This document shows, one piece after another, positions 5,287 through 12,460 of a stretch of DNA of 64,000 nucleotides; the first letter of the stretch is position 1; each line of letters starts with the position of its first letter. The notes under the pieces were generated by a model. It was not told the DNA's origin and searched no databases. It saw only the letters and a program-made list of their open reading frames with translations. Where the stretch lies: the NCBI GenBank assembly GCA_964370315.1, contig CAYJIS010000002.1, positions 35,753 to 99,752 of the forward strand, given 5' to 3'. This DNA is from an uncultured Treponemataceae bacterium. Lineage in GTDB: Bacteria > Spirochaetota > Spirochaetia > Treponematales > Treponemataceae. The position numbers and the translations under genes were made by a program.

Positions 5287-6336
5287 ATGAAAAAAGTACT
5301 TATTTTTATTGCCTTACTTTACCTAACGAGCACCTTAGTAGCTCAAGAAAAAGAGAGAACCTTTCAATTTAGCTTAGTGACCCCCTTAGGAACAAACTGG
5401 ACAGATTCACACCTATACACTAACATATGGTCTCTTAATTTAATTGGTGGCTATAGTTATGCAAACAAAGCCGTTGAACTGGGAGGGTTATACAACTTCA
5501 ACTCGGGATTTACACAAGGTTTTCAAGCAGCAGGATTATTAAATTATACCGGAAATAGTGTAAACGCATTTCAGCTTGCAGGATTTGCAAACCTTTCCTT
5601 ATCTGGTAATTCAAGTCTTCAACTTGCAGGAATTGGAAACTTGGGCGAAAACACAACAGGCCTGCAGGGTGCAGGAATCATCAATATAGGAGCAAATATT
5701 ACAGGCGTACAAGTGGCAGGTGTAATGAACTTTGCAGATTATGTTACCGGAATACAGATAGCTCCAACTTTTAATATTGCAAAGTCTGTAAAAGGTGTTC
5801 AAGTTGGTCTTGTAAATTATGCCGAAGACATTGATGGGGTCCAAATTGGACTTATAAATGTTGTTGAAAACGGAGGAAAACAAGAAATAGAGATTTCTTC
5901 TTCTGAAGTCTTACACGGTGTTATTTCCTTTAAACTTGGAACAGATACCTTATATACTATTTTTTCCAGTGGTACTTACTTCTTGAATTATGATTTTGAA
6001 TACGGAGCAGGTATTGGCTTTGGCACACAATTAAACTGGAACAATGGGTGGAATAACCAAATCGAAGCAATTCATTATGCTATTTCGAGGGATGCAAGTT
6101 TTGAAACAATTCCCAATTCGCTTAATCAGGTAAAACTGTTAACAAGCAAAAACCTTATTGGTGGATTAAATATTTTTGCGGGCCCTGTTTTCAATTTAGA
6201 AATTCTTTATAAGTACAAAGTGGATGGAAGCTTCGGTGAATCGATTGCCCCTTGGGTTTTCTGGAACGTAAAAAATGAGCAAAACCACTTTAATATGTGG
6301 GTTGGATTTAACGTAGGCTTATCATATAGACTATAA
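5287..6336 (+). CDS. LA_2272-like surface repeat protein, shorter paralog
   Basis: 349 aa. The first 61 residues are nearly identical to the 3777 gene. It has the same GxQxAGxxN repeat type but fewer units. The C-terminal domain is homologous (GFGTQLNWN..NQIEAI...VKLLTSK) and ends ...GLSYRL. Confidence 0.75.
   Translation: MKKVLIFIALLYLTSTLVAQEKERTFQFSLVTPLGTNWTDSHLYTNIWSLNLIGGYSYANKAVELGGLYNFNSGFTQGFQAAGLLNYTGNSVNAFQLAGFANLSLSGNSSLQLAGIGNLGENTTGLQGAGIINIGANITGVQVAGVMNFADYVTGIQIAPTFNIAKSVKGVQVGLVNYAEDIDGVQIGLINVVENGGKQEIEISSSEVLHGVISFKLGTDTLYTIFSSGTYFLNYDFEYGAGIGFGTQLNWNNGWNNQIEAIHYAISRDASFETIPNSLNQVKLLTSKNLIGGLNIFAGPVFNLEILYKYKVDGSFGESIAPWVFWNVKNEQNHFNMWVGFNVGLSYRL
5368..5467 (+). repeat. 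Second copy of the 100-nt identical block (see 3858-3957)
   Basis: Same as 3858-3957. Confidence 0.9.
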
Positions 6337-6339
6337 AAC

Positions 6340-6642
6340 ATGAAAGAAGACTTTGATTCTCTTGCCCTTGCCATTGTAGAAGAGATTCCACTTGGCAAGG
6401 TTTCAACCTACGGCTATATTGCAAGCCTTATGGGCTACCCCAAAAATTCCCGACATGTCGGTAAGGCATGCTCAAATGCATCCTATTATGGAGAGTTTCC
6501 GTGTCACAGGGTAGTAAACTCACAAGGAAGATGCGCCCCTAGTTGGGATGAGCAACGTTTTTTATTAGAAGATGAAGGCGTGCGATTTAAAGAAAACGGT
6601 TGTGTAGATTTGAAAGAGCACTTATGGACAGGAGAGCAATGA
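6340..6642 (+). CDS. MGMT-family protein (methylated-DNA-[protein]-cysteine methyltransferase DNA-binding domain only)
   Basis: 100 aa. VSTYGYIA...PCHRVVNSQG contains the PCHRV active-site motif with the Cys retained. There is no N-terminal Ada/Ogt domain. Confidence 0.8.
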   Translation: MKEDFDSLALAIVEEIPLGKVSTYGYIASLMGYPKNSRHVGKACSNASYYGEFPCHRVVNSQGRCAPSWDEQRFLLEDEGVRFKENGCVDLKEHLWTGEQ

Positions 6643-6650
6643 TATAAAAC

Positions 6651-7859
6651 CTATCCTTTCCTCTCCTTATTTCTACCCTTTTTAAACTCATACATCCTGC
6701 TGTCTGCCAAATCAATTAATGAATCAATTGAAAGCTTATTCGTTTTATCTATCACAACAACACCATAACTAATTGAAGTGTCATATTCTTTTTTGTGTTT
6801 TTCTTTAAGTCTTACAACAGCCTCATGGCAATCTTGGGCGCTCTGCATCACATCAAGCTGCCTTATTTTGTTGCCTATAACGAGAAATTCATCTCCTCCA
6901 ATTCGAGCAATAATATCATAAGAAAAGCTTTCTTTTATACACTTTGTAGCATTTTTAATATACCAATCACCCTCTTCATGGCCATACGTATCATTAACTA
7001 TTTTTAATCCATCTAAATCGAGATACACCACATAGCAGTACTCTTTTTTTCCTATACTTTTTTGCAAAACATCCATTGCTATTTTTTTAACATAAAATCC
7101 CGTACAAAAATCTGTCTTCGCTTCTTCATTTAGTCTTTTTATCGTAACATTTTCAGACTCAATTTCAGCAGACGTGTCTTCGTACGTTTTAGATGCTTTT
7201 TTTAAGTTCGAATAAATAAAAACAATAAGCATAACAATTACAAAACTAATTAATGCTAAAAGCCCCGTTCTTATTTGATATATTGCATTAAAATGCCAAT
7301 CTCCTGTACCTATGTATAATGTTGGAATTGTTAATAGCTGCGTTATAGCTATAGCGCTTAATAATACACATGCTAATGTTAAGGTTGTTTTATCTTTAAA
7401 AATATAGATAACTGTATTTGAAATTAGTATTTTACTACTTATTAATATATAAGGGGTAACAATGATAAAAACAATAGCTGTTATCAAAATCTTATTATCT
7501 ATTACAGATAATATATCAATAATATCTTGCTGCCTATAAAGAGAAAAAATACCAATTACTAAAACCTTTAGACCAAAAAAGTTTATGATAAAGCACAGAA
7601 TAGAAGAAAGCGTAGTCATAAAGGGTTGTTTATATATTAGTTGCACTTCTACACCTAACACTAGAAAAAAAACTATCATAAACAATTCTTCGTGAATAAA
7701 GTTAAAACTAAAAAAAGGCGTATAAATCAAAAAACTATTCAAAATAATAACTAATATCACATTTTGAATTTTTGCCATTGCAATACCATAAATTCGAGAA
7801 AGCCAAAACATAACACACAACATATACATTACATATGCAACACAAGTAAAAATAAACAT
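6651..7859 (-). CDS. Polytopic membrane GGDEF-domain diguanylate cyclase, type A (no I-site)
   Basis: 402 aa. The N-terminal half of about 220 aa is multi-TM, followed by a coiled linker. GGDEF domain: LDLDGLKIVNDTYGHEEGDWY...ARIGGDEFLV. The residues 5 positions upstream of GGDEF read FSYD, not RxxD. The start lies 1 nt after the stop of the upstream gene. Confidence 0.88.
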   Translation of the reverse strand: MFIFTCVAYVMYMLCVMFWLSRIYGIAMAKIQNVILVIILNSFLIYTPFFSFNFIHEELFMIVFFLVLGVEVQLIYKQPFMTTLSSILCFIINFFGLKVLVIGIFSLYRQQDIIDILSVIDNKILITAIVFIIVTPYILISSKILISNTVIYIFKDKTTLTLACVLLSAIAITQLLTIPTLYIGTGDWHFNAIYQIRTGLLALISFVIVMLIVFIYSNLKKASKTYEDTSAEIESENVTIKRLNEEAKTDFCTGFYVKKIAMDVLQKSIGKKEYCYVVYLDLDGLKIVNDTYGHEEGDWYIKNATKCIKESFSYDIIARIGGDEFLVIGNKIRQLDVMQSAQDCHEAVVRLKEKHKKEYDTSISYGVVVIDKTNKLSIDSLIDLADSRMYEFKKGRNKERKG

Positions 7860-7860
7860 G

Positions 7861-9078
7861 CTATGTTCTCCTTTTCCTATAATAAAACTCTTTATCTTTT
7901 TTCATAAGATTATCAACTATATCTAAAACCTCTGTCCTTGTTTTTTTCTTCTCTCCCATCGCAAAGTACTTGTATCCTAAATTTGCATGCACAGTAAATA
8001 TTTCTTTTTCATCATGTTCTTTAATTAAATGTTGCATGCGATTAATGATAGATTGCAATATTTCATCCGTAACATCTGTTAAAATTACCACAAACTCATC
8101 TCCTCCTACCCGAGCCGAAAAATCGTCTTCTCGTATAGTCGCTCTCACAATGTTTGCAATGTCTATTAGGTACCGGTCACCTACTTTATGCCCAAAGGTA
8201 TCATTCACTGATTTTAAACCTGCCAAATCTGCATAAATTAGCCCAAAGTTATTATCTGAACTTTCACAAAGCTCATCAATTTTTCTATATATAAAACGCC
8301 TATTATAAAGCTTTGTTAAGTCATCGGTATATAGCTTATATTCTGTAGCAAGTTTCTTTTTTATTACTTGTCCATGTAAGGTAACTGCTTCATCGGCTTT
8401 TCGTTTGTAAGGATGTAAAACCATTATAAATGTATTAAAAAAGAACAGACTATAATACATAAGCAAAACAAAAAGAATTGTAATTACTGATGATAGGAAA
8501 AATTCTACAGTGTGAGGATTATTTGCTAGCACCCATGAATCTAACAAAACCACAAAAAATAAAAAACTTGATGTTCCGCCCATAATCTCTGAGTAAATCT
8601 TTGCAGTAGAAACCTCAAGTAACTTTGCAGCCGAAAGATATTTCTTTGCTAGTTCTAGAACTCCTATAAGAATTAAATACGTGATTGATAATGTTTGAAA
8701 AAATAATGAATGGTTATCATACATTTCTACCAATGTCATATTCAAAACTGCCCCAGTTATAATTAGAACAAGAAGATGTATAGAGGCTAGATTTATTAGA
8801 TAACTCGATGTTCCAAACAGAATTTGTCTAAAAGGAGCCTTTGAAACAAGTTTAAAAGTCACAAAATAAACCACATACGAAGCAATATACAAAGCAAAAA
8901 AAGGTAGGCCAAGATAGTACACAAAAGCGAAAACAAAAGTATTTATTACTGGAACAATAAAAAAAATTATTTTTCTTTTCGTCGGATATTTTAAAAGCGG
9001 TATAGCGAAGTGAAAAATAAAAAAACTATGGAGTATATAGATTGAAAAACCTATAAATTCAAAAACACGCACATTCAA
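7861..9078 (-). CDS. Polytopic membrane GGDEF-domain diguanylate cyclase, type B (RxxD I-site present)
   Basis: 405 aa. Multi-TM N-terminal half. DDLTKLYNRR...ADLAGLKSVNDTFGHKVGDRY...REDDFSARVGGDEFVV. TTG start preceded by AAGGA. Confidence 0.88.
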   Translation of the reverse strand: MNVRVFEFIGFSIYILHSFFIFHFAIPLLKYPTKRKIIFFIVPVINTFVFAFVYYLGLPFFALYIASYVVYFVTFKLVSKAPFRQILFGTSSYLINLASIHLLVLIITGAVLNMTLVEMYDNHSLFFQTLSITYLILIGVLELAKKYLSAAKLLEVSTAKIYSEIMGGTSSFLFFVVLLDSWVLANNPHTVEFFLSSVITILFVLLMYYSLFFFNTFIMVLHPYKRKADEAVTLHGQVIKKKLATEYKLYTDDLTKLYNRRFIYRKIDELCESSDNNFGLIYADLAGLKSVNDTFGHKVGDRYLIDIANIVRATIREDDFSARVGGDEFVVILTDVTDEILQSIINRMQHLIKEHDEKEIFTVHANLGYKYFAMGEKKKTRTEVLDIVDNLMKKDKEFYYRKRRT

Positions 9079-9340: not shown

Positions 9341-9967
9341 TTATATATCTTTTAACCCTGTAATAAGATTTTTCGCATATGGCAAACCTTCAATCCATTC
9401 ACAAAAAGTATGCCATTCGTTTAGCTTATGATTTTTTCTTGAATAATAAATATTTATAAGCGTTTCATAATTCATTGTGCAGGTGCGAAGCTGATTATAG
9501 CTTGACGGTAAAAGCTGAATCATATCGTGCCAGTATGACTTATCTTTGGTTTCTACAAAAGAAAGGCGTGCTTTTTCTAAAAAGTCGATAAGGATTTGCA
9601 TTTGCTCCTTTGCTGCTTCACTCATTTTATCCGTACTAAAATCGTCCATGCTAAAAGGCTTTGAGTGTATTTTATGCATCGTGCTTGTGGAATTTGCAAC
9701 GGTCGAAACTTTATAAGTATCGTATTCTTTCCACCAATACATAGGAGCTGTTACATCAACAGAAACAAAAATCTGCCGTATAAATTTGCGATGATCGCTT
9801 CCTGATTTACAAAGGCGCCCTGCAAGATCTAAGTCTTTTTCTCCAAGAACATAGTTTCCCTTGTCATCATAGTAACTATCAGATCTCTCCCAACTATTCA
9901 TTGGATTTCTTGCACCCCTAATAGCATTTTCTATATTCATAACTGAATCGTTTGAAATTGTTAACAT
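9341..9967 (-). CDS. ThyX-fold (Thy1-like) protein lacking the canonical RHRxxSxxxxSxR signature; function unknown
   Basis: 208 aa. By eye it is collinear with ThyX as I remember it: AIRGARNP.. matches [37 protein letters not shown] matches [60 protein letters not shown] matches [33 protein letters not shown]. All signature Arg and His residues are replaced. Confidence 0.55.
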   Translation of the reverse strand: [208 protein letters not shown]

Positions 9968-10032
9968 TCTTTTTCTCCCACTTCGTTTGCTTTTATTAGT
10001 ATATCAAAAAGGGGGTGGCTCGACAATAGATT

Positions 10033-11286
10033 TTACTGAGAATATTTTTGTTTACGCTCTTTATTTCTCATCTTTTTAAAGGTATACATTTTATCATCAG
10101 TTAGTTCAATTAACTCCTCTGCTGTAAAAATGTTTGAACTATCAACTTCTGTTACTCCATAACTAATAGATGTTTCATACTCTTTCTTATTTTTCTCTTT
10201 GAGTTTTAATACAGATGCATAACAACGCTGAACCTTATCGTTTATTGAAGACGAATCATTTCCTACTAGCAAGAATTCGTCCCCTCCAATACGGGCAACA
10301 GTATCTGCAGAAAACACACTTTGTATTTCTTTTGATACTTCTTGAATATACCAATCACCCTCTTCATGGCCATAGGTATCATTTACTATTTTCAATCCGT
10401 CTAAATCAAGATAAACAATGTAGCATTTTTCACGCTCAGATAAAAACTTTTGCAACTTTTTCACCGCAACACTTCTAACATAAAATCCAGTAAAAAAATC
10501 AGTTTTTACCTCTGCTTCTAAACGTGCTACGGTTGAGTTTTCCATTTTTATTTTTTCAGAAGTAACTTCATACGTAACAGAAGCTTGTTTTAGTTTTGAA
10601 TAAATAAATACAATCACCATAATAAGAATAAAACTTATAAGGGCTAGTAAGCTTATCATTATTTGAAAACTGCTATTTAAAAGAGGATCCTCTGTTTCAA
10701 TATAAAGTGTTGGTAAAGCAAGTATTTGACTTATACAGGATATTCCTAATAATACCGCTGCTAATTTTAAGCTTGGAATATCACTAAATAAAAATTTAAT
10801 TACCTTTGAAATAAGTATCCTACTGCTAACAAGTATGTAAGGCGCTAAAATAAGAAATGTAATTGCTGTTATCTTAATTCTGTTATCAATATCACCAATC
10901 ATTTCAACGATTTGTTGACCCGAATTATAAGCAAAGATTCCTATTAGTAAAACTCTAATACCAAAATAATTTATGGTAAAACATAATACTGCAGATACTG
11001 TTTGTACCAGTGACTGTTTATACGTTAACGCAATCTGCATTCCAATAACAATAAAATATATAAACATCATTAGCCATTCTAACTTAAAGTCAGTTATATA
11101 AATCGGCACATAAACCAAAAAAGAGTTAATTATAATAAGGAAAAGCAACCTTGTTACGCTTACCATAGGAACACCAAAAATGCAAGCAAAATAATAGAAT
11201 ACAAAAATAATATAAGTGATATAAAATAAGTATGTAGCTATCAACACTCTAAAAACCCCCTTTTTTATAAAAGATTTTTTTATCAT
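10033..11286 (-). CDS. Polytopic membrane GGDEF-domain diguanylate cyclase, type A paralog (no I-site)
   Basis: 417 aa, collinear with 6651-7859. LDLDGLKIVNDTYGHEEGDWY...ARIGGDEFLL. FSAD occupies the I-site position. Its 5' end overlaps the upstream gene by 38 nt. Confidence 0.88.
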   Translation of the reverse strand: MIKKSFIKKGVFRVLIATYLFYITYIIFVFYYFACIFGVPMVSVTRLLFLIIINSFLVYVPIYITDFKLEWLMMFIYFIVIGMQIALTYKQSLVQTVSAVLCFTINYFGIRVLLIGIFAYNSGQQIVEMIGDIDNRIKITAITFLILAPYILVSSRILISKVIKFLFSDIPSLKLAAVLLGISCISQILALPTLYIETEDPLLNSSFQIMISLLALISFILIMVIVFIYSKLKQASVTYEVTSEKIKMENSTVARLEAEVKTDFFTGFYVRSVAVKKLQKFLSEREKCYIVYLDLDGLKIVNDTYGHEEGDWYIQEVSKEIQSVFSADTVARIGGDEFLLVGNDSSSINDKVQRCYASVLKLKEKNKKEYETSISYGVTEVDSSNIFTAEELIELTDDKMYTFKKMRNKERKQKYSQ

Positions 11287-12460
11287 GTTTCATGAGTTCA
11301 TCAACTTTTTCTAAAACATCCGTCCTTGAAAGACCATCTATTGTTTCAAAGCACTTGTATCCCAAATTTGCATGCACCGTAAACTCTTCTTTTTCATCAA
11401 TCTTGCGAATTGAGTTTTTTATTCTTCTAATTATTTCTTCCATCTCATTGTGTGTAACAGAAGTTAATATTATAACAAACTCATCTCCTCCGATTCGAGC
11501 AGGAAAATCCTCATCACGTATTGATTTTTGCAAAACTCTTGCTACATCCAATATATAGCGATCTCCAACCTTATGCCCATACGTATCATTAACATACTTT
11601 AGTGCAACGAGATCTGCATATACTACAGCAAAGCTACAATTCTTAGCCTCACACAATTCATCTATTTTTTGATGCACAAAGCGTTTGTTATAAAGATTTG
11701 TTAGATCGTCGCTATAAAGCTTGTACTCAGTAGCAATTTTCTTTTTAATGATTTTACCATGCAATGTTTTTGCTTCATCTGCTTTTCGTTTATAAGGATG
11801 AAGAACCGTTATATTTGCATTAAAATAAAACAGTACATAAAACATTGCCATTACAAAAAAGATTGTTGCAAGAGCCGAAATTGGAAAAAGAGGTTGATAA
11901 TGAGCTTTCATAAGAAACCATGACTCTGCACAAAGGGCTGCAAATAAAAAGGTTGATTGTGAAGACATTATCTCAGAGTATACTTTTGCAGTTGATATTT
12001 CTACAAATTTTGAAATAGGAATATATTTTTCATAAACTTTTATTAAGACAATAAGAATTGTACAACTCACCACTACGGTTTGAAAAAGTAATGGGACATT
12101 TACATAGATGTCACCTAAGGATTCGCGCAAGATCAAGCTATACAAAAGCAAAACGGTAAGATGAACCGCAACCATACTTAATAGATATGAAGTAATAAAA
12201 AACCAAACTTGTCTGAAGGTTGTTTTAGTGCAAAGGCGAAGTTCAACAAAATAGCCGAAATACCCAATAACGTATAGCACAGCCCAAGGAACCCCGCAAA
12301 AATATAACACAATAAAAGTACACGTGTTAAAGAGCGTAAAAAAAATCAGTAAAAGGGTATTCTTTTTAGAGTATTTGAGAATTTTTAAAGCAAACTGCAA
12401 AATAGAAAAGCAATATGTGGCATAAGATAAAAAGCCTAATGCAATCCAAAAATTCGTCAA
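11249..12460 (-). CDS. Polytopic membrane GGDEF-domain diguanylate cyclase, type B paralog (RxxD I-site present)
   Basis: 403 aa, collinear with 7861-9078. DDLTNLYNKR...ADLVALKYVNDTYGHKVGDRY...RDEDFPARIGGDEFVI. TTG start 6 nt after AAGGAG. Confidence 0.88.
   Translation of the reverse strand: MTNFWIALGFLSYATYCFSILQFALKILKYSKKNTLLLIFFTLFNTCTFIVLYFCGVPWAVLYVIGYFGYFVELRLCTKTTFRQVWFFITSYLLSMVAVHLTVLLLYSLILRESLGDIYVNVPLLFQTVVVSCTILIVLIKVYEKYIPISKFVEISTAKVYSEIMSSQSTFLFAALCAESWFLMKAHYQPLFPISALATIFFVMAMFYVLFYFNANITVLHPYKRKADEAKTLHGKIIKKKIATEYKLYSDDLTNLYNKRFVHQKIDELCEAKNCSFAVVYADLVALKYVNDTYGHKVGDRYILDVARVLQKSIRDEDFPARIGGDEFVIILTSVTHNEMEEIIRRIKNSIRKIDEKEEFTVHANLGYKCFETIDGLSRTDVLEKVDELMKHDKKIFYKKGGF

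Follow-up and report, generated by a model that had tools for sequence, protein, structure and literature searches.

The stretch of DNA considered here, a window of 64,000 nucleotides on contig CAYJIS010000002.1 of an uncultured Treponemataceae bacterium, carries on its minus strand an intact open reading frame (9341..9967) for a protein of 208 amino acids (aa) with the fold of ThyX, the flavin-dependent thymidylate synthase (FDTS). The N-terminus of the protein agrees with the consensus of its family, phrog_6721, for which we use the name NF. For the essential synthesis of thymidylate, textbooks name two families of enzymes, ThyA and ThyX. We argue that NF is probably a functional enzyme forming deoxythymidine monophosphate (dTMP) with a rewired ThyX site, which would supply the thymidylate synthase that is otherwise missing from this genome.

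The locus

A ribosome-binding site, GGGAG (ctccc on the plus strand; 9975..9979, minus strand), can be read directly from the sequence 7 nt 5' of the ATG of the NF gene. In the 65-bp gap behind the upstream GGDEF gene lies a promoter-like site, TTGTCG-17-TATACT (9998..10026, minus strand), in which a TG precedes the -10 element (extended -10) and which, as a pattern match only, agrees with the consensus at 9/12 positions in a consensus scan. The four genes which flank NF encode membrane-anchored GGDEF proteins and form two paralogous pairs. These polytopic proteins are encoded in tandem on the minus strand at 6651-9078 (402+405 aa) and 10033-12460 (417+403 aa). The genes of the upstream pair overlap by 38 nt (11249-11286), the two pairs look collinear, as if a two-gene cassette had been duplicated with NF lying between the copies. 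NF itself forms a unit of one gene in the window, preceded by a promoter-like site and a ribosome-binding site of its own, and the GGDEF genes around it look like an incidental local duplication. The gene in the window belongs to the chromosome, and its immediate flanks, as far as examined, contain no phage genes; the anti-phage defence models of PADLOC gave no match to NF at E up to 1.

NF as a distant relative of ThyX

The relation of NF to ThyX (PF02511, Thy1; EC 2.1.1.148; T. maritima TM0449, H. pylori) escapes searches with a single sequence and emerges from profiles and structure alone. The window protein has no match in Pfam and NCBIfam, even at E up to 10, and a phmmer search against PDB sequences returned nothing relevant. 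Across the family, 10/35 members match Pfam Thy1 weakly (best E = 3e-4), and P0189 is the sole scanned member above the Pfam Thy1 cut-off (29.3 bits). When the family profile is run against the PDB, the best match is H. pylori ThyX, and it is weak (E = 0.43). An hhalign comparison of the family with a 10-sequence ThyX alignment, built from the genomes of relatives, is collinear across 148 columns (E = 0.0034). The AlphaFold2 model of the window protein reaches a predicted local distance difference test value (pLDDT) of 93.8 and a predicted template-modelling score (pTM) of 0.87, and its top-50 PDB matches in Foldseek are all ThyX (E ~1e-8, template-modelling score 0.6-0.7). A fold search of the viral library BFVD returned the family's own uncharacterised phage members first and then phage ThyX-like synthases.

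An earlier, sequence-only reading of this locus had described a ThyX-like protein aligned by eye in three blocks, and both the fold search and hhalign bear this out, the named blocks being the most conserved ones of the family. It had made the resemblance depend on a significant Thy1 hit, which is absent for the single sequence but present at the level of profiles and structure. NF and ThyX share the fold, a similar length and collinear blocks, and the predicted structure identifies NF as a ThyX-fold homologue of ThyX. The window protein falls below the curated Thy1 hidden Markov model threshold and the family lacks the ThyX signature motif, whereas the fold and the C-terminal Arg/His are present. 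Most probably, NF is a large unnamed sister family of ThyX. ThyA (PF00303, EC 2.1.1.45) has an unrelated fold; NF shows no sequence match to it, the fold search returned ThyX only, and NF has no invariant Cys nucleophile.

The window protein aligns from end to end with the phrog_6721 profile, which represents a phage family of unknown function (E = 8e-70; residues 1-202 against positions 7-215 of the 218 in the profile). In a word-indexed search the family exceeds 8,000 clusters at 90% identity, all 8,000 scored candidates being significant, and in an exhaustive search it comprises 3,864 clusters at 50% identity. It is annotated as 'hypothetical protein' in all sources, and no published description of it was found in the literature searched, most subscription journals being outside coverage.

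An alignment of 35 diverse NF members contains 13 invariant columns (R20, S25, D30, D45, G56, K61, Y85, S95, P154, Y167, R177, E184 and W185) and about 24 further columns with at least 90% conservation; the invariant residues are mostly polar or charged. Orthologues from other families are 62-77% identical to the window protein, with a non-synonymous divergence (dN) of 0.21-0.35 and a saturated synonymous divergence (dS) of at least 2, which gives a dN/dS of about 0.07-0.17. NF is under strong purifying selection and is not a decaying or dead protein. Because the window copy is closer to copies from other lineages (73-77% identity) than to those of its own taxonomic family (62%; compared were L099, L100, L004 and L013), these identities suggest lateral transfer of the gene. 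A sporadic distribution together with lateral transfer is likewise described for ThyA and ThyX in PMC2826268.

Several family members carry additional domains. An in-frame homing-endonuclease-like insert of HNH_3, NUMOD4 and a helix-turn-helix (HTH) is present in P0128, P0138, P0163, P0213 and P0244 (400-478 aa); it is located at about residue 110-125 of the window protein, in a variable, lower-confidence loop (about residues 105-125). Inteins, considered as a possible pointer to an essential active site, are not what the long homologues carry; they have this insert instead, and no functional inference is drawn from it. P0189 (379 aa) has a C-terminal DUF3310 fusion, and one member carries a fused P-loop nucleotide-kinase domain.

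A rewritten active site

The ThyX signature RHR-x7-S-x-RY reads TYK-x8-S-x-MH in NF (residues T84-H98; 9674..9718, minus strand), and these replacements are conserved family-wide. The T. maritima residue numbers used here derive from motif offsets and from mutants named in PDB titles. In the hhalign mapping, R78, H79 and R80 of T. maritima correspond to T84, Y85 and K86 of NF, N85 to N92, S88 to S95, and R90 and Y91 to M97 and H98, while R74 and Q75, ahead of the motif, pair with K80 and E81. The exchange of R80 for K86 is a conservative Arg-to-Lys replacement. Within this segment Y85 and S95 are invariant among the 35 members, and conservation reaches 90% or more at K86, T89, S93, T96, M97 and H98. 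The loss of the signature Arg and His residues had been noticed by eye and holds in substance across the family; the register was one residue off, with RHR set on D-T-Y instead of T84-Y85-K86, and one Arg has in fact become a Lys (K86).

Outside the signature, H59 (in S57-D58-H59; 9791..9799, minus strand) pairs with H67 of the first row of the ThyX alignment, a His invariant among the ThyX sequences, which by the RHR offset is T. maritima H53, a residue mutated in PDB entries among the fold matches. Close to it lies the family-invariant K61 (9785-9787, minus strand). The C-terminal block R177-W185 (RKNHKLNEW; 9413..9439, minus strand) is paired with the LR-x3-HAQ-x-E block of ThyX; here R177, E184 and W185 are invariant among the 35 members and H180, K181 and L182 nearly so. 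R177 is aligned with R199 of the first ThyX row, an Arg invariant in ThyX which we take to be T. maritima R174, a residue contacting uracil, and H180 with H178. The second phosphate-binding Arg, a ThyX-invariant residue which is presumably T. maritima R147, is replaced by Q151. About half of the ThyX-invariant positions survive in NF. The equivalents retained are H59, N92, S95, L153-P154, R177, H180, E184 and the N-terminal Arg/Ser block (R20, S25), and of the mapped Arg residues only the C-terminal R177 is kept. Unlike ThyX, NF has the invariant residues D30, D45, K61, Y85, Y167 and W185.

Distribution in the absence of ThyA and ThyX

The genome from which the window derives is 82% complete. 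Searches of it found no ThyX (Thy1), no ThyA and no Tdk-type thymidine kinase. A dUTPase, serine hydroxymethyltransferase (SHMT) and the thymidylate kinase Tmk are present. The steps before and after thymidylate synthase are therefore accounted for, and only the synthase itself is not.

In a class-wide sample of 151 genomes, ThyX occurs in 109 and ThyA in 30. Within the window's own taxonomic family, NF is carried by this genome and by G077 and G114, which are both 99% complete, and all three lack ThyX and ThyA; the genomes of this family without NF have ThyX in 5/5 cases. Three genomes of a different family in the sample (G014, G088 and G123) have neither ThyX nor NF and show weak partial ThyA-like matches (E ~1e-9 to 1e-10, model positions 66-220); they may contain another divergent synthase.

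More broadly, a pattern scan across the species genomes of GTDB returned 80 loci with NF, and the genomes of 50 of these were searched. Both ThyA and ThyX are absent from 45 of these 50 genomes; 1 has ThyX, and 4 have a ThyA-like match, weak in one case and in another split and apparently frameshifted. An unbiased sample of 121 genomes of the family of L. phytofermentans shows the same tendency. NF alone is found in 16 genomes and NF plus ThyA in 2, whereas 11 have ThyX without ThyA, 90 have ThyA (with or without ThyX) and no NF, and 2 have none of the three. Both known synthases are absent from 16/18 carriers versus 2/103 non-carriers (Fisher p = 6e-16, phylogeny uncorrected), and ThyA and NF are mutually exclusive in these 16/18 carriers. 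NF is thus present in about 15% of one major gut family (18/121 genomes), and many other Clostridia searched have neither ThyA nor ThyX and an unannotated NF instead. In this occurrence without ThyA, NF resembles ThyX.

The pattern extends to isolates: Johnsonella ignava ATCC 51276, Oribacterium sinus DSM 17245 and L. phytofermentans carry NF without ThyA and ThyX. Among five carriers tested for Tdk, only L. phytofermentans has it; it is absent from G077, G114, Johnsonella ignava and Oribacterium sinus, other thymidine-salvaging kinases not having been searched for. Judged by gene content, these four have no recognised route to dTMP.

Dihydrofolate reductase (DHFR, FolA) accompanies ThyA in 24/25 genomes of the class sample and is present in roughly 7% of its ThyX-only genomes. 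Of the NF carriers, 21/50 have DHFR overall, as do about 17/45 (~38%) of the NF-only carriers, most of which therefore lack FolA, as ThyX-only genomes do. Co-occurrence with DHFR was considered as a test of ThyA-like chemistry and set aside, since the NF frequency is intermediate and leaves the cofactor question undecided.

Gene neighbourhood and phage copies

Neighbouring genes were clustered in 76 NF loci other than the window, with Pfam support where stated. In 16-18 of these loci, DHFR (PF00186, E = 9e-46) follows NF on the same strand at a median distance of 4 bp, and in about 20 of 76 a pair of PyrK/NfnA-like and GltD/NfnB-like oxidoreductases comes after DHFR. A CDF transporter is found downstream of NF in 12/76 loci, and genes that look by eye alone like a MATE pump and an M23 peptidase recur in other loci. 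Twelve thyA-centred regions were compared from ThyA-bearing genomes of the same bacterial family, and in 10 of them folA comes after thyA with order and orientation unchanged. Therefore, NF occupies in Lachnospiraceae the operon slot directly upstream of folA that is otherwise held by thyA. The NfnA/NfnB-like pair was not seen beside thyA in the thyA regions fetched. The arrangement also sets NF apart from ThyX: the folA of genomes which possess one is linked to NF in an operon, and few ThyX-only genomes of the class sample have DHFR.

In the carriers with both NF and thyA (G176, G194, G168 and G252), folA adjoins thyA. The thyA of G168, Anaerocolumna sedimenticola (NZ_CP048000.1, C1:4846611-4847422), is apparently frameshifted and consists of two overlapping fragments, which could mean that a redundant thyA is decaying or that an error arose in sequencing. 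In G252 (L113, C1:1996000-2009000), thyA, two DHFR genes, NF and the NfnA-like and NfnB-like genes are found in one cluster. This genome measures 6.9 Mb and has a second NF copy elsewhere.

An Rfam search of 14 loci at gathering thresholds found no riboswitch beside NF, tetrahydrofolate (THF) and ZTP riboswitches included; matches elsewhere in these loci were confined to rRNA, one tRNA, a glmS ribozyme and a Clostridiales-1 RNA. The last of these (RF01699, 86.9 bits) lies at L053 4723-4873, about 130 bp upstream of NF in Eubacterium sp. AM49-13BH, and had no match in the remaining 13 loci.

NF homologues are carried by 28 phage records. In the four phages inspected (phiCTP1, Fnu1, phiCD211 and PMBT24), NF lies within the replication module, as phage ThyX also does, with neighbours such as clamp loaders, DNA polymerase, primase, helicase, recombinases, a deoxynucleoside monophosphate (dNMP) kinase and a cytosine methyltransferase; in Fnu1, NF adjoins the cytosine methyltransferase.

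A candidate thymidylate synthase

Because NF is almost confined to bacteria without a known route to dTMP, the likeliest reading is that it represents a thymidylate synthase which has escaped recognition, and not a dead enzyme. Its place before folA, the P-loop kinase domain fused to one member and the phage copies among replication genes are further points in favour. What we infer from the observations is the reaction itself, together with the cofactor and the oligomeric state. The proposed reaction would convert deoxyuridine monophosphate (dUMP) and 5,10-methylene-THF to dTMP, so that NF and ThyA would have the same net function. On this view, NF keeps the scaffold of ThyX together with some residues of the pyrimidine pocket (H59, N92, S95, R177 and H180). 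The phosphate-clamping RHR and R-Y have been exchanged for T-Y-K and M-H, and an invariant set of its own (R20, S25, D30, D45, K61, Y85, Y167, E184 and W185) has been gained. With respect to the cofactor, we lean towards ThyX-like chemistry dependent on reduced flavin, with a re-wired binding site. Such reductant-dependent chemistry, in which THF is not oxidised, is favoured because most NF-only genomes lack FolA, and the missing invariant Cys excludes a literal ThyA mechanism.

Several points weigh against this assignment. The window's genome is only 82% complete, and salvage may proceed through a kinase other than the Tdk type. Since 5/50 carriers have ThyA or ThyX as well, NF is not strictly exclusive with them, and since the sampled genomes are related, the Fisher p overstates independence. 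The linkage of NF to folA is absent in the window and largely confined to one bacterial family (Lachnospiraceae), within which shared ancestry can mimic a functional linkage; with DHFR in only 21/50 carriers, the link is not universal. At the active site, the equivalents of T. maritima R78, H79, R80, R90, Y91 and R147 are replaced, and therefore canonical binding of flavin adenine dinucleotide (FAD) and dUMP is not to be assumed; for catalysis of the ThyA type, an invariant Cys is missing from the 35 members.

The changed site leaves some room for a different course of the reaction. It is conceivable, though rather unlikely, that NF is a mechanistically new thymidylate synthase on the ThyX scaffold, which would have given up its own FAD/NADPH cycle with the loss of the RHR flavin/phosphate clamp. 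This idea is kept alive by the tight NF-folA operon and by the NfnAB-like pair, which was seen with NF and not with thyA. In one version, methylene-THF would serve as both carbon donor and reductant and dihydrofolate would be released, that is, ThyA chemistry on a ThyX fold without Cys; this would explain the tight operon with folA. In a second version, the electrons would come from the co-transcribed NfnA/NfnB-like iron-sulfur flavoprotein pair.

Among the explanations that give NF another role altogether, the one which fares best holds that it acts on a pyrimidine nucleotide in a reaction other than the conversion of dUMP to dTMP, for example as a hydroxymethylase, as another base or nucleotide methylase or as a ThyX relative specific for uridine monophosphate (UMP) or deoxycytidine monophosphate (dCMP), and that the carriers obtain dTMP by an unrecognised salvage pathway or some other route. 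In other relatives of ThyX and ThyA, changed clamping residues go with changed substrate specificity, and the nucleotide-clamping arginines of NF do differ from those of ThyX. Base-modification enzymes also occur in phage replication modules, the Fnu1 copy stands beside a cytosine methyltransferase, and a known synthase is retained in the 5/50 carriers mentioned above. We nevertheless regard this explanation as improbable: it does not account for the way in which NF tracks the absence of ThyA and ThyX, for the missing Tdk in four carriers or for the thyA slot before folA, and the cellular housekeeping distribution, with more than 70% identity across families, is unlike that of phage-type hypermodification enzymes.

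Much weaker is the proposal that NF is a catalytically dead ThyX-fold binder of dUMP, FAD or cyclic di-GMP (c-di-GMP), with a regulatory or sensory role linked here to the GGDEF cyclases. The sequence-only reading had inclined this way, considering a thymidylate synthase unlikely and a pseudoenzyme possible on account of the lost signature Arg and His, and pointing to the c-di-GMP cyclase genes on both sides. All four flanking genes are indeed GGDEF genes, yet no GGDEF gene belongs to the recurrent neighbour clusters of the 76 other NF loci, and the link to c-di-GMP was rejected for this reason. Nor does a dead protein agree with a large family that has 13 invariant, mostly polar or charged residues and a dN/dS of 0.07-0.17, with carriers mostly devoid of ThyA and ThyX and in part of Tdk, with a place in the folA operon in the slot of thyA, or with copies in the replication modules of lytic-type phages. 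Furthermore, a regulator of thymidylate synthesis would be expected alongside ThyA or ThyX and not in their place. Such a role is very hard to reconcile with the data. The supposition that the complementary distribution is an artefact of thymidine auxotrophy or incomplete assembly, NF having an unrelated housekeeping role, can draw on the 82% completeness of the window's genome, on the many metagenome bins among the carriers and on gut habitats that may supply nucleosides, but it is just as implausible, since G077 and G114 are 99% complete and the three isolates show the same pattern, four carriers lack the Tdk needed for thymidine salvage, and with only 2/103 NF-less genomes devoid of both synthases, assembly gaps cannot yield 16/18.

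If NF is indeed a thymidylate synthase, this would close a hole in reconstructed metabolism, both for anaerobes of the gut and for oral species (Johnsonella and Oribacterium among them), and would assign a function to a phage protein family (phrog_6721) now labelled as unknown. It would also show how far the active site of ThyX can be rewritten with its function kept, or that new chemistry has arisen on this scaffold, and it would bear on the response of these bacteria to antifolates and fluoropyrimidines.

Other genes near the locus

Two further genes lie on the plus strand beyond the downstream GGDEF pair. The first (5287-6336) encodes a protein of 349 aa whose N-terminus resembles a signal peptide and which contains numerous short repeats rich in Gly, Gln and Val (such as GVQVAG, GIQIAP, GVQVGL and GVQIGL); it has no Pfam match at E up to 1e-5. 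The second (6340-6642) encodes a 100-aa protein that consists of the DNA-binding domain of O6-methylguanine-DNA methyltransferase alone (PF01035), in which the active-site motif PCHRV is kept.

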